From a virus (taxonomy: Duplodnaviria > Heunggongvirae > Uroviricota > Caudoviricetes), in the IMG/VR virus record IMGVR_UViG_3300045988_125232, positions 1 to 28,227 of that record: a stretch of 28,227 bases of DNA; one strand, written 5' to 3'. Position 1 is the first letter of the stretch. Each line of letters starts with the position of its first letter. Both the position numbers and the translations under genes were made by a program. Positions 11,083-14,730 of the stretch are shown here, in pieces. A model generated the notes under the pieces. That model saw only the letters and a program-made list of their open reading frames with translations, was not told the DNA's origin and searched no databases.

Positions 11083-11835
11083 ATGAACCTTGAAGCCTTA
11101 CCGAAATATTACTCCCCGAAATCTCCAAAACTGAGCGATGACGCACCGGCGACAGGCTCTGGTGGTTTAACGATTACGGATGTGATGGCTGCGCAGGGGA
11201 TGGTGCAGTCGAAAGCACCGCTTGGGTTTGCCTTATTCCTGGCAAAAGTTGGTGTTCAGGATCCTCAGTTTGCGATTGAAGGTCTGCTCAATTACGCGAT
11301 GGCACTGGATAACCCGACATTGAATAAATTGAGTGAAGAAACCCGGCTACAGATCATTCCTTACCTTGTGAATTTTGCCTTTGCTGATTATTCCAGGTCT
11401 GCGGCAAGTAAGGCTCGCTGTGAGCATTGTGCTGGTACTGGATTTCATAATGTATTGCGCGAGGTGGTGAAACACTCCAGAAGCGGGGAATCTGTTATCA
11501 AGGAAGAGTGGGTGAAGGAACTATGTCAGCATTGTCATGGTAAGGGAGAAGTCAGCACAGCGTGCAGAGGGTGTAAGGGTAAAGGTATTGTCCTGGATGA
11601 AAAAAGGACCCGGCTTCATGGCACGCCTGTTTATAAGATTTGTGGGCGTTGCAATGGAAACCGGTTTAGCCGTTTACCAACTACACTGGCACGACGTCAT
11701 GTCCAGAAGCTGGTTCCAGACCTGACTGATTATCAGTGGTACAAAGGATATGCAGACGTAATTGATAAACTAGTAACAAAGTGCTGGCAGGAAGAAGCAT
11801 ATGCTGAAACGCAATTGAGAAAGGTGACGAGATAA
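11083..11835 (+). CDS. Q: Late-gene antitermination protein Q
   Basis: 250-aa ORF with cysteine clusters (CEHCAGTG, CQHCHGKG, CRGCKGKG, CGRCNG) typical of Q-family zinc-binding antiterminators; followed by a promoter and terminator, then the lysis genes. Confidence 0.8.
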   Translation: MNLEALPKYYSPKSPKLSDDAPATGSGGLTITDVMAAQGMVQSKAPLGFALFLAKVGVQDPQFAIEGLLNYAMALDNPTLNKLSEETRLQIIPYLVNFAFADYSRSAASKARCEHCAGTGFHNVLREVVKHSRSGESVIKEEWVKELCQHCHGKGEVSTACRGCKGKGIVLDEKRTRLHGTPVYKICGRCNGNRFSRLPTTLARRHVQKLVPDLTDYQWYKGYADVIDKLVTKCWQEEAYAETQLRKVTR

Positions 11836-11866
11836 GTGATTTTCGCCGAAGATGGCGACATGAAGC

Positions 11867-11895
11867 TTGCATTTTTCAAAAAATATGGATAAGAT
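11867..11895 (+). promoter_or_regulatory. Candidate late promoter (pR'-like)
   Basis: TTGCAT, 17-bp spacer, TAAGAT, located between Q and the downstream terminator. Confidence 0.3.
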
Positions 11896-11941
11896 TTTCT
11901 CAACGATGGGCTTTGTATGTCTGCCGTTGATAATTTTCACG

Positions 11942-11968
11942 AACCCGCTGTTGAGCGGGTTTTTATTT
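11942..11968 (+). terminator. Rho-independent terminator (tR'-like)
   Basis: Hairpin ACCCGC-TGTTGA-GCGGGT followed by TTTTTATTT, downstream of the candidate late promoter. Confidence 0.6.
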
Positions 11969-12020
11969 ACTTGTACTGAAACACATTATATAACCTCATA
12001 TCAGTTAAAAAGGAGGTTGT

Positions 12021-12356
12021 ATGATTAATGCCGTTGAGTACAGATTACCGTTAGGAAATATCTCTCCAGAGAATCTTGACGCGTTGTCAGAGCTTATCGT
12101 TAAGCATTCCGATAAATTTAATAACTATGTACTTAGTTCTATTTCTGATGATGATATTCGATATTCTTACGATTACTACAATTTTGAAATCACAGAGATA
12201 GATGAATATGGGTTTCACTTTATAGCACCATATAGCTATTATGAAGGATGCGTTGACAATAACTTCTCAGGAGAGGTTGAAGGTTATGCAGAATACGAAA
12301 TCATTGATAATGAATTAGTCTTCTCTCTTGAGGAACTACCTTGGGATGTAAAATAA
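12021..12356 (+). CDS. Highly acidic small protein of unknown function (moron downstream of Q)
   Basis: 111-aa ORF with a strong AAGGAGG ribosome-binding site. AT-rich, bracketed by the upstream terminator and its own downstream terminator; Asp/Glu residues far outnumber basic ones. Confidence 0.7.
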   Translation: MINAVEYRLPLGNISPENLDALSELIVKHSDKFNNYVLSSISDDDIRYSYDYYNFEITEIDEYGFHFIAPYSYYEGCVDNNFSGEVEGYAEYEIIDNELVFSLEELPWDVK

Positions 12357-12367
12357 ATATCAATAAT

Positions 12368-12398
12368 AAAGGCCGTAACGAACGGCCTTTATTATTAT
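12368..12398. terminator. Bidirectional-looking rho-independent terminator
   Basis: Hairpin AAAGGCCGT-AACGA-ACGGCCTTT flanked by A-run and T-run. Confidence 0.6.
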
Positions 12399-12507
12399 AA
12401 AATCATCAATGCCTGATGAATTAGAATGTAATTTTCGAATTAATAATAAATCAACATATCATTTCACGCTCCGATTTTCTGTCGGAGGCGAAACTGCGGC
12501 TATTCAT

Positions 12508-12813
12508 ATGCACGAAAAAGAGAATCTTGCTGGAGCGTTCTGGCTCGTTTTGCTGATCATCGCAGGTTGGGGCGGTCTGGTCCGCTACCTGATAGATGTG
12601 AAGCAGAGTAAAGCAACGTGGAGTTGGATAAATGCTCTGGCTCAGATAGTGGTATCAGGATTCACCGGTGTTATTGGTGGCCTGATCAGCATCGAAAGTG
12701 GATTCAGTATTTACATGATTCTCGCGACAGCGGGGATTAGTGGTGCGATGGGTTCGGTTGCACTGACGTACTTCTGGGAACGACTGACAGGGGTGAAAAA
12801 TGCAAAATCTTAA
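12508..12813 (+). CDS. Holin (three predicted transmembrane segments)
   Basis: Hydrophobic about 100-aa product immediately upstream of, and overlapping, the endolysin. The start is uncertain: the ORF extends up to an ATG at 12409, and a GGAGG lies 19 nt before the 12508 ATG. Confidence 0.6.
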   Translation: MHEKENLAGAFWLVLLIIAGWGGLVRYLIDVKQSKATWSWINALAQIVVSGFTGVIGGLISIESGFSIYMILATAGISGAMGSVALTYFWERLTGVKNAKS

Positions 12814-13276
12814 TCCTCAGCGTAAAGCTTTCCTCGATATGGTGGCATGGTCAGAAGGAACGGATAACGGGCGACAACCGACACGTAACCACGGTTATGA
12901 TATTATTGTCGGTGGTGAACTCTTCACTGATTACTCCGATCACCCTCGCAAACTTGTCACGCTAAACCCCAAACTCAAATCAACAGCTGCAGGCCGTTAT
13001 CAACTTCTTTCACGCTGGTGGGATGCTTACCGCAAGCAGCTTGGGCTGAAAGACTTCTCTCCAAAAAGCCAGGATGCTGTGGCATTGCAGCAGATTAAAG
13101 AGCGTGGCGCTTTACCGATGATTGATCGCGGCGATATTCGTCAGGCTATCGATCGTTGCAGCAATATCTGGGCTTCACTGCCGGGCGCTGGTTACGGTCA
13201 GTATGAACATAAAATCGGTGACCTGATTGCCCGATTCAAAGAGGCTGGCGGGGTGGTAAATGAAGTTGAGCTATAA
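12800..13276 (+). CDS. R: Endolysin, lambda R-type lytic transglycosylase
   Basis: 158 aa, near-collinear with lambda R as I recall it (...QRKAFLDMVAWSEGTDNGRQ...GYDIIVGGELFTDYSDHPRKLVTLNPKLKSTAAGRYQLLSRWWDAYRKQLGLKDFSPKSQDAVALQQIKERGALPMIDRGDIRQAIDRCSNIWASLPGAGYGQ...). Confidence 0.95.
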   Translation: MQNLNPQRKAFLDMVAWSEGTDNGRQPTRNHGYDIIVGGELFTDYSDHPRKLVTLNPKLKSTAAGRYQLLSRWWDAYRKQLGLKDFSPKSQDAVALQQIKERGALPMIDRGDIRQAIDRCSNIWASLPGAGYGQYEHKIGDLIARFKEAGGVVNEVEL

Positions 13277-13721
13277 GCTGGTTATCGCTGCATTCTTCGT
13301 TACTGTCATTGGTTCTTTTATCTGTTCAGCAAATTATTACCACAGCAAAGCCATCGAATACAAAAAGCAGCGTGATGAGAATGCTATGGCATTAGATTCG
13401 GCTATGGCGACTATCTCTGATATGCAGAAGCGTCAACGTGACGTAGCAGAACTTGACGCCAGATACACAAAGGAGCTTGCTGATGCTAACGCGACTATCG
13501 AAAGTCTCCGTGCTGATGTTTCTTCTGGGCGTAAGCGCCTGCAAGTCGCCGCCACCTGTGCAAAATCAACGACCAGAGCCAGCGGCATGGGCGATGGAGA
13601 AAGCCCAGGACTTACAGCAGATGCTGAACTCAATTATTACCGTCTCCGAAGTGGAATCGACAGGATAACCGCACAGGTTAACTACCTGCAGGAGTACATC
13701 AGGACGCAATGCCTTCGATGA
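13260..13721 (+). CDS. Rz: Spanin inner-membrane subunit Rz
   Basis: 153 aa with an N-terminal TM helix and coiled-coil body, similar to lambda Rz (…YKKQRDENA…DMQKRQRDVAELDARYTKELADA…); overlaps the endolysin stop. Confidence 0.9.
   Translation: MKLSYKLVIAAFFVTVIGSFICSANYYHSKAIEYKKQRDENAMALDSAMATISDMQKRQRDVAELDARYTKELADANATIESLRADVSSGRKRLQVAATCAKSTTRASGMGDGESPGLTADAELNYYRLRSGIDRITAQVNYLQEYIRTQCLR
13483..13668 (+). CDS. Rz1: Spanin outer-membrane lipoprotein Rz1 (embedded in Rz, +1 frame)
   Basis: ORF nested within Rz with a lipobox (LLGVSAC) and a proline-rich mature part (KSPPPVQNQRPEPAAW), as in lambda Rz1; the start Met is uncertain. Confidence 0.7.
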   Translation: MLTRLSKVSVLMFLLGVSACKSPPPVQNQRPEPAAWAMEKAQDLQQMLNSIITVSEVESTG

Positions 13722-13988
13722 TAGCGATAATTTTACTCATCATCCTTCACATCAGGCCCTGTAGACAGAGTGGTGATTACTTCTGGAGTGGATTCAGATT
13801 AAACATCTCATTGCTAATGTTTGAGGTTAAGCATCTGGCGCGCGGTAAGTGGTTGCGTTGAAATAAGAGCCAGTCCATTACAAATTTCATCAAGCGTTAT
13901 TGGTAAGGGTGATAATTATGAGATACCTCTTCACTAAGAGTAATCTTAAGGGTAATGTGTAACCTCACTTTTTAATACGGAGGTTGTA

Positions 13989-14213
13989 ATGTTAGAGAAT
14001 TATTTCCCTTCAGGAATAGGTGCTCAGCCTGTAACTCAAGCTCAAAAACAGAGGGTTATAGCTGTTCAAGCTGCCCTTGAATTAGTTAAGGCCTCACTTT
14101 CTTCTGCAGGTGGTCAGGCTACAAGTGCAAAATTTGAACAGGAATTAAAAGCAGCTATTGGCTTAATTGAACCATTAGCCGATGCCATTCAGAAAGCAAT
14201 CAGCAAAGAATAA
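13989..14213 (+). CDS. Small helical protein of unknown function (74 aa)
   Basis: Strong ribosome-binding site (ACGGAGGTTGTAATG) and AT-rich flanks, between the lysis cassette and the HNH/terminase genes. Confidence 0.6.
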   Translation: MLENYFPSGIGAQPVTQAQKQRVIAVQAALELVKASLSSAGGQATSAKFEQELKAAIGLIEPLADAIQKAISKE

Positions 14214-14318
14214 ATAAACCACCTGCATTTTGTTTTATTTCCCAACTAACGGGTGTAATAATCTTAATGTTTCCCGTGGATAGATAAGACAATAAGTATT
14301 CACCTTCAAGATATAAAC

Positions 14319-14345
14319 GAGCCTCGCTAATGCGAGGCTTTTTTA
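14319..14345 (+). terminator. Rho-independent terminator
   Basis: Hairpin GCCTCGC-TAAT-GCGAGGC followed by TTTTTTACG. Confidence 0.55.
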
Positions 14346-14379
14346 CGCATTGTAAGCGTGCACCAAAGAGGGGATATAA

Positions 14380-14730
14380 ATGCCACCACGAACCCCAAAA
14401 GCCTGCCGTTTTCGCGGTTGCCGCAATACCACGACTGATCCGTCAGGCTATTGCGAAAGCCACAAAAGCGAGGGCTGGAAGCAATACAAGCCAGGACAAT
14501 CCCGTCATCAGCGCGGTTATGGTTCGAAGTGGGACAGTATCCGCGCGGGTGTCCTGAAGCGTGACAAAGGCCTGTGTCAGTTATGTCTGCGTGCTGGTGT
14601 GGTGCGTGAGGCGAAAACCGTTGACCACATCATCCCTAAAGCGCATGGCGGCACTGATGCCGACTGTAATCTGCAGAGTCTGTGCTGGCCGTGTCATAAG
14701 GCGAAGACGGCCCGTGAACGACTTAAGTGA
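14380..14730 (+). CDS. HNH endonuclease (terminase-associated)
   Basis: 116 aa with an N-terminal Cys cluster and HNH core (DHIIPKAHGGTDADCNLQSLCWPCHKAK); located directly upstream of the terminase genes as in HK97-like cos phages. Confidence 0.9.
   Translation: MPPRTPKACRFRGCRNTTTDPSGYCESHKSEGWKQYKPGQSRHQRGYGSKWDSIRAGVLKRDKGLCQLCLRAGVVREAKTVDHIIPKAHGGTDADCNLQSLCWPCHKAKTARERLK

Follow-up and report, generated by a model that had tools for sequence, protein, structure and literature searches.

Two unrelated morons of a lambdoid prophage share a leader complementary to its own ribosome-binding site: a candidate portable translation insulator

Operons that carry morons are massively transcribed in lytic growth, and many morons are thought to act in the lysogen, so that one may ask how translation of such a gene could be kept apart from the abundant transcript that runs through it. 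The question is raised by IMG/VR virus record IMGVR_UViG_3300045988_125232, positions 1 to 28,227 (the whole 28,227-base stretch analyzed, here called the window), the late region of an Escherichia coli lambdoid prophage. Two small late genes on its plus strand, M1 (12021 to 12356; a 111-amino-acid acidic protein in the open reading frame list) and M2 (13989 to 14213; a 74-amino-acid helical protein), are each preceded by a leader holding the complement of its own Shine-Dalgarno (SD) sequence. Here, we report a comparative analysis of these leaders, which tentatively suggests that each gene would be silent on RNA begun upstream and translated from RNA begun at a promoter nested in its own leader.

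Leader 1 (TATAACCTCATATCAGTTAAAAAGGAGGTTGTATG, 11989 to 12023) and leader 2 (TGTAACCTCACTTTTTAATACGGAGGTTGTAATG, 13958 to 13991) have in common AACCTC (11992 to 11997; 13961 to 13966) and the ribosome-binding site GGAGGTTGT (12012 to 12020; 13979 to 13987). A first-pass annotation of this DNA had quoted both leader strings and pointed out the shared motif and site; both are present, with small corrections of coordinates (11985 is the base of the predicted 13-bp stem). The pattern AACCTC-N8-22-GAGGTT matches twice in the 28,227 bases on both strands, exactly at the two leaders, with 0.00 matches expected, and none of 100 dinucleotide-preserving shuffles gives any match. An exact 6-mer anti-SD within 45 nucleotides (nt) upstream was found for 12% of the M2 family, 2 of 4 M1 variants, and 2 of 207 (1%) further genes with a strong SD from the same prophage loci. 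A side match in that set, at about 2435 to 2495 of locus L094 (a Raoultella prophage), is TATAACCTTC...GGAGGTTATTAATG, a 9-bp anti-SD stem before an unrelated 136-amino-acid gene that resembles the M1 motif.

In the predicted fold of leader 1, 13 contiguous pairs, including 2 G.U, join 11985 to 11997 with 12013 to 12025 (−13.2 kcal/mol; z = −3.26; 1 of 200 shuffles equally stable) and cover 4 of the 5 GGAGG bases (SD, 12012 to 12016), the spacer, the AUG, and 2 coding bases. The minimum free energy and centroid structures place the 5′ arm (AUUAUAUAACCUC), which is the anti-SD arm, at 11985 to 11997, a 15-nt loop that is variable in homologs at 11998 to 12012, and the 3′ arm (GAGGUUGUAUGAU), with the AUG (12021 to 12023) and the first 2 bases of codon 2, at 12013 to 12025, all on the plus strand. 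Leader 2 folds, on the same strand, into a 7-bp core (13960 to 13966 with 13980 to 13986) and a 5-bp outer stem (13954 to 13958 with 13989 to 13993), at −7.5 kcal/mol (37°C; z = −0.62; 49 of 200 shuffles equally stable). Its 5′ arm (UGUAACCUC) spans 13958 to 13966, with the outer stem reaching back to 13954, its 13-nt loop (8 to 13 nt in homologs) lies at 13967 to 13979, and the 3′ arm with spacer and AUG (13989 to 13991) occupies 13980 to 13993, the SD GGAGG being at 13979 to 13983. The first-pass annotation had proposed an 8- to 9-bp stem burying the SD in each leader. Burial is possible in both, and the stem is conserved within each gene family; the stem of leader 1 is longer than proposed and is favored by folding, whereas leader 2 is not significant on thermodynamics alone, and its support is therefore comparative.

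That an AT-rich leader with a strong SD merely happens to contain its own complement, and does so twice, would sit comfortably with the thermodynamics of leader 2. We find this hardly credible, given that shuffling does not produce even one copy of a pattern that occurs twice, that the background rate among comparable genes is 1%, and that the stem persists in diverged homologs.

The M1 protein family is tiny, with 3 diverged relatives (66 to 72% identity) in E. coli, Salmonella, and Citrobacter, and its gene always sits between antiterminator and holin genes, which themselves come from differing families. All 4 distinct M1 leaders form 13- to 16-bp stems over SD and AUG (−13.7, −15.3, −17.0, and −21.7 kcal/mol), and 94% of the cells in the alignment of the 4 variants are paired, compared with 36 to 52% in slid controls. 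The pair 11986/12024, which includes the first base of codon 2, shows a compensatory change, being U-A in the window, C-G in L001 and L007, and U.G in L003.

M2 belongs to a large protein family found widely in Enterobacterales prophages, where its gene nearly always stands between lysis and terminase genes; the leaders of the family are of several types. The window leader belongs to group A (25 distinct sequences), defined without reference to pairing by hexamer type, an upstream TT block, and a GGAG SD. In this group, 90.4% of cells in the anti-SD/SD helix are paired, against 39 to 49% with slid partners; three pairs show double-sided changes (alignment columns 36/59, with A-U, G.U, and G-C; 35/60, with G-C; and 37/58, with U-A), many single-sided changes are G.U compatible, and RNAalifold predicts a 6-bp core independently. 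The cassette copies in E. coli give no covariation information, apart from one 70% homolog. The predicted probability that the SD is unpaired is 0.11 in the native long leader of group A, 0.33 when the upstream segment is shuffled, and 0.57 when the RNA begins at the predicted start, and the native upstream segment hides the SD more than the shuffle mean in 26 of 27 group A leaders.

These alignments also bear on whether the inverted repeat acts as DNA, bound by a dimeric regulator whose operator would overlap both the promoter and the ribosome-binding site. The repeat does adjoin a promoter-like element, whose spacer contains a second small palindrome. We consider an operator very improbable, because the common G.U and U.G pairs would read as A × C mismatches in the DNA or the opposite strand, the spacing of the arms varies from 8 to 15 nt, and the arms change sequence yet stay complementary, unlike a site recognized by a protein. 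The frequent G.U pairs thus point to a structure on plus-strand RNA, not on DNA.

The leader is also found away from M1 and M2. With a covariance model built from group A M2 leaders only, the M1 leader (11963 to 12023) is the second-best match in the window and is matched end to end (25.6 bits; E value of about 7e-4). Viral contigs were scanned for TAACCTC-N8-20-GGAGGTTGT, and the full module was found in the post-lysis position before an unrelated 176-amino-acid gene in L228 (77.5 bits, the best score of all) and before an unrelated 59-amino-acid gene in L215 and L242 (52.3 bits). By these sequence comparisons, the leader is a portable cassette reused on different cargo, and the shared motif is no coincidence; the idea of a common origin or a common control in the first-pass annotation, which had also suggested looking for the leader on other cargo in related prophages, holds in this particular sense.

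Portability suggests a simpler role, in which the leader is mainly a recombination linker or inherited cassette end and the SD-complementary segment hitchhikes with it. The module precedes three unrelated cargo families at one genomic position (M2, the L228 gene, and the L215/L242 gene), homology breakpoints lie at its edges, and promoter-plus-stem-loop cassettes called promoter early stem-loops (PeSLs) mediate such shuffling in T4-type phages (PMC2839356). As a full explanation this seems improbable to us: the pairing survives sequence change, with compensatory changes included; the native upstream segment outdoes its shuffled versions in hiding the SD in nearly all leaders tested; and the M1 pairing extends into coding sequence, where a compensatory change occurs. 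A linker role is, in any case, compatible with control of translation and does not exclude it.

The anti-SD arm has the same setting in the two families, with a conserved −10-like hexamer on one side and the predicted transcription start on the other. For M1, a −35-like TTTACT (11966 to 11971, plus strand; TTTACA in the 3 homologs) is followed 17 nt later by a −10-like TATAAC (11989 to 11994, plus strand) inside the 5′ arm, with a predicted start at about 12000 to 12003. TTTAC(A/T)-17-TATAAC is invariant in the 4 distinct leaders, in which only about one-third of the 17-nt spacer is invariant, and the −10 region TATATAACC is the same in all 4 variants. For M2, a −35-like TTCACT (13930 to 13935, plus strand; TTTATT, TTGAGA, and TTTGAT among the group A variants) lies at a constant spacing of 16 to 17 nt from a −10-like TAATGT (13953 to 13958, plus strand), with a predicted start at about 13965 to 13967. 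Across the 25 group A leaders, the SD, the second T of the −35-like TT (column 5), and hexamer positions 1, 2, and 6 (TAnnnT) are invariant, and positions 3 to 5 vary (TAATGT, TAATCT, TATTGT, TAGTCT). Those three hexamer positions are the most conserved ones in sigma-70 −10 elements. The last T is invariant though its pairing partner varies, so a promoter fits this conservation better than RNA structure does. The M2 5′ arm starts at the last base of the hexamer and runs about 9 bases further; with a start some 7 to 9 nt past the hexamer, most or all of the arm would therefore be excluded from the gene's own transcript. Promoter activity and the position of the start site are what we infer from these patterns.

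A different promoter type occupies the same place elsewhere in the family. A sigma-32-type motif, TTGAAA-N13-14-CCCCAT, was found at this position in 38 of the 132 other M2-family leaders (0.14 expected from shuffles), so this is evidently a place for a promoter module. In some of these members (e.g., L133 and L157), G-rich SDs pair with the −10 CCCC. Separately, the sigma-32 (RpoH)-like element, in the form TTGAAA-N13-14-CCCCAT(n)T, stands about 75 to 50 nt before the start codon and is followed by a short 5′ hairpin (e.g., L133, L138, L145, L157, L174, L184, L020, L147, and L171), and M2-like small prophage proteins appear, from these motifs, to be heat-shock regulated in many Enterobacterales.

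Two further elements lie upstream of the M2 hairpin. Helix 1, an inverted repeat (TAAGA-GTAA-TCTTA, 13935 to 13948, plus strand; alignment columns 9 to 22) inside the promoter-like spacer, has 76% of cells paired and three pairs with double-sided changes; in relatives (GGATTAATCC, CAGATAAATCTG, TAAGAACATTCTTA) its sequence shifts and its symmetry is kept, and its role may be that of an RNA hairpin or of an operator. A GATAAT(G) motif (13912 to 13917, plus strand), recognized by inspection of leaders and uncounted, is possibly an alternative −10. The arrangement (hairpin)-GATAAT(G) recurs about 70 to 75 nt before the start codon in nearly all M2-family members, whatever the type of promoter downstream, and may serve as another promoter or mark the end of a cassette.

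These features suggest a module in which a sigma-70-like promoter is followed by an anti-SD segment and a variable loop, and these by a very strong SD (GGAGGTTGT) and a start codon. On RNA begun upstream of the module, the anti-SD arm would pair with SD, spacer, and AUG and block 30S binding. Here, such RNA would be the Q-antiterminated late transcript, reading through both cassettes. RNA begun at the module's own promoter would lack the 5′ arm, and its strong SD would be free. The cargo's own promoter would supply the RNA from which its protein is made, for instance in the lysogen, and the plentiful read-through RNA of lytic growth would yield none. To judge by genome architecture, both genes would lie on longer transcripts started upstream; their synteny is kept in homologs. 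Stems this stable should, as de Smit and van Duin reportedly found, almost abolish initiation; with M1 stems of −14 to −22 kcal/mol, expression would therefore need a form of transcript without the 5′ arm. Transcript-specific gating of this kind, with read-through RNA silent and own-promoter RNA translated as in T4 e, soc, 49, and I-TevI, is the explanation that we prefer, with confidence a little below even. A fuller version, in which an anti-SD in the discriminator of a gene's own promoter forms a portable translation insulator that leaves the cargo translated in the lysogen and silent on late RNA, and in which the module of about 65 nt serves as a recombination linker too, is put forward more guardedly, as a possibility on the doubtful side.

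The reading closest to the first-pass annotation places the hairpin in the moron's own 5′ untranslated region, with the M2 start possibly at GATAAT, where it would serve as an attenuator, a thermometer, or a riboregulator opened in trans by a small RNA, a protein, or RNase processing. The M2 stem of the window is modest, contains several G.U pairs, and falls within the range of known thermometers; the sigma-32-type promoters tie the family to heat; helix 1 covaries somewhat, as if the upstream region were transcribed and structured; and GATAAT is conserved upstream of M2. Thermometers also occur in prophages, such as the fourU of SPbeta blyA (PMC10586365). We nevertheless think this reading unlikely, while regarding it as a serious competitor. 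A simple thermometer would call for less stable stems than those of M1: in all variants, the SD and AUG are predicted to be equally accessible from 20 to 45°C, and the stems are still at −11 kcal/mol or stronger at 45°C. On this temperature-dependent folding, a simple thermometer was rejected as unlikely for M1. A promoter accounts for the invariant TAnnnT and the −35 TT at their fixed distance better than RNA structure does, and the analysis yielded no candidate trans factor.

The thermometer suggestion can be narrowed further by comparison with known types. In fourU and ROSE elements, as in SPbeta blyA (PMC10586365), a 5′ leader stem likewise covers the SD, with UUUU opposite AGGA or with U(U/C)GCU, whereas the arm here is AACCUC(C), nearly the 16S anti-SD itself; neither motif is found in the leaders. 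A search of 11800 to 14400 against Rfam (E-value mode) gave only subthreshold chance matches and no thermometer family even at an E value of ≤1. Among these, a mir-374 match (11973 to 12038) was rejected as merely a hairpin shape. A subthreshold Leu_leader match at 14203 to 14345 (27 bits, gathering threshold 50; E = 0.0085), across the 3′ end of M2 and its terminator, most likely reflects only the terminator hairpin. For M2, too, no opening is predicted from 20 to 45°C; such predictions are crude, and a thermometer, which M1 does not support, may still apply to the weaker M2 stem.

Several observations weigh against transcript-specific gating. The M1 covariation, with 4 sequences, has no statistical power, 259 of 500 shuffles doing as well. 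For group A, the covariation comes down to about three independent events, and no compensation is seen in two variants (L014, C × C; L186, A × C). A consensus promoter scan called neither nested promoter, and both −10-like hexamers are poor: TATAAC has no final T, a nearly universal base, and TAATGT agrees with the consensus at only 3 of 6 positions. The M1 hexamer could be a mere by-product of complementarity to the AU-rich spacer GTTRTA. Helix 1 and GATAAT hint that M2 transcription might start upstream, which would put the hairpin in its own mRNA. The sigma-32 subgroup shows no general SD sequestration (0.34 native, 0.37 shuffled), and silencing of read-through RNA is therefore not a universal need of the M2 family; a promoter-embedded anti-SD was rejected as a rule for that subgroup, its average being no better than shuffled.

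The closest known counterparts are in T4-type phages. In T4 e, soc, 49, I-TevI, I-TevII, I-TevIII, and segB and in Aeh1 mobE, a hairpin hides the SD, the AUG, or both on long transcripts, and a promoter in or at the 5′ strand of the hairpin gives the gene its own transcript, which lacks that strand and is translated (PMC3014915, PMC2988022). The predicted geometry is the same here, with the 5′ arm between a −10-like hexamer and the predicted +1. The nested T4 promoter is a gp55-dependent late promoter (TATAAATA), and early and middle RNAs are silenced, whereas the promoter predicted here is host sigma-70-like and silencing would fall on the late Q-antiterminated transcript, a reversal of the T4 timing (on in the lysogen, off in lytic growth). 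The T4-type hairpins have no sequence homology to the module, which is, moreover, portable between unrelated cargo. The pattern scan of viral contigs added an independent example in favor of gating, a free-standing 286-amino-acid Endonuclease_7-domain gene inserted after a capsid-like gene (L261, about 2575 to 2645, and L289; also L195 and L270). In L261 and L289, a perfect consensus TTGACA-17-TACAAT directly abuts AACCTC...GGAGGTTGTATG, and the AACCTC anti-SD arm pairs with CGGAGGTTGTATG; the design is that of I-TevI and mobE but with a sigma-70 consensus promoter.

The PeSLs of phages RB49 and phi1 are modules of about 60 to 100 bp with a sigma-70-like promoter, a stem-loop between or overlapping its boxes, an SD, and an ATG; they front different ORFans and act as recombination linkers (PMC2839356). 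The module here likewise fronts unrelated cargo and has a small stem-loop in the promoter spacer. PeSL stem-loops are G/C rich, act as terminators or attenuators, and have no reported SD pairing, whereas the main stem here is AU rich and pairs with SD and AUG; the stems here lack a U tract, and the terminator scan called neither as a terminator. The hosts also differ, PeSLs being carried by T4-type phages and the present module by lambdoid prophages. On our reading, the element would work like the nested-promoter hairpins of T4 and travel like a PeSL.

Both genes are morons: extra genes of deviant G+C content, with terminator-like hairpins of their own, that are missing from close relatives. 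This assignment is made because both cassettes are GC poor (0.32 to 0.42, compared with 0.47 to 0.58 in the flanks), neither was found in 50,697 GenBank phage records, and homology to SfV, mEp460, HK620, and similar phages stops at the edges (11964, just past the tR′ stem, and 13885). Of 5,426 complete E. coli genomes, 132 carry M1 and 38 carry M2, both nearly invariant; the differing counts indicate that the cassettes are independent. E. coli ECONIH4 (NZ_CP026399) has both, with 100% identity to the two cassette queries (11960 to 12420 and 13880 to 14350). The lambdoid moron was reportedly defined by Juhala and Hendrix, with lambda bor and lom as examples. Such morons are likewise single extra genes with a promoter-like element and a terminator, deviant in G+C content, between genes of the late operon. 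The classical definition includes neither a translational insulation element nor a conserved flanking linker, a contrast made in PMC2839356. No description of SD-masking leaders on lambdoid morons was found in the literature searched, an absence of evidence that holds within that library only.

The two cassettes, flanked by terminators, sit inside the late operon on the same strand: M1 comes after Q/tR′ and before the holin gene, and M2 comes after Rz and before the HNH/terminase genes. The Q antiterminator gene (11083 to 11835; Pfam PF03589) is followed on its 3′ side by a pR′-like sequence (TTGCAT-17-TAAGAT, 11867 to 11895, plus strand), read from the sequence as a putative late promoter. 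A tR′-like intrinsic terminator (11941 to 11968, plus strand; terminator scan), with its stem at 11941 to 11962 and a T tract, forms the left junction of the M1 cassette. The stretch from Q to tR′ is 90 to 93% identical in SfV, mEp460, Ayreon, and Stx2c phages, and the tR′-like site carries a terminator annotation in SfV and Ayreon. This terminator is common to L001 (2983 to 3010), L003, and L007, with stem changes that keep the pairing (CCCGCTGTTGAGCGGG versus CCCGCCACCGTGCGGG), and is kept across prophages with different antiterminators (Q versus DUF1133) and different holins; the M1 cassette seems to move by recombination at a junction formed by this terminator and its T tract. Translational coupling through an open reading frame at 11867 to 12028, which ends just inside M1, was set aside, as the frame crosses the tR′ terminator and starts at about the pR′-like −35.

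A terminator-like hairpin with a 16-bp stem (12361 to 12397; terminator scan, strand not assigned), in an island with a G+C content of 0.32 to 0.34, closes the M1 cassette. The holin, endolysin, and Rz genes follow (12409 to 13721). The M2 cassette is closed by a terminator-like hairpin, GAGCCTCGC-TAAT-GCGAGGCT with a T run (14320 to 14345; terminator scan), to which no strand is assigned, the scanner calling it on the minus strand and the T run being read on the plus strand. The HNH, small terminase, and large terminase genes lie 3′ of this cassette.

The cargo proteins belong to function-unknown families (M1, PHROG 13663; M2, PHROG 5901) and gave no Pfam, PADLOC, or NCBIfam match. The AlphaFold2 model of M1 (predicted local distance difference test score [pLDDT], 74) had no significant fold match in the PDB or BFVD, and that of M2, two helices, is of low confidence (pLDDT, 66). 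Other genes were seen beside M2 homologs. In the Pantoea-type loci L014 to L016, a divergent 171-amino-acid helix-turn-helix gene (HTH_3/HTH_31; L014, 1710 to 2225, minus strand) lies directly upstream of the M2 homolog and, judged by its position, might be a dedicated regulator of the cassette. Genes with PF24729 (the Acb2/Tad1 hairpin domain of sponges that counter Thoeris and the cyclic oligonucleotide-based antiphage signaling system) lie near upstream of M2 homologs in L018 and L019 (1263 to 1538) and directly adjoin them in L020 and L021 (1648 to 1884), and the gap between lysis and terminase genes looks like a hot spot for cargo of the antidefense type.

To our knowledge, accounts of how moron expression is kept independent of the operon around it deal almost exclusively with transcription, through the promoter and terminator that each moron brings along. 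An RNA element, conserved and portable, that did the same for translation would supply a layer so far missing. Predictions of when prophage cargo is expressed would benefit, as defense, antidefense, and virulence genes use these hot spots, and synthetic biology would gain a natural insulator of compact size. The module is short and is carried by many complete E. coli genomes (about 130 with M1 and about 40 with M2), among them those of extraintestinal pathogenic strains, so that the hypothesis is directly testable. If gating by a promoter-embedded anti-SD holds true, it would be a general design rule for placing a lysogeny gene in a lytic operon.

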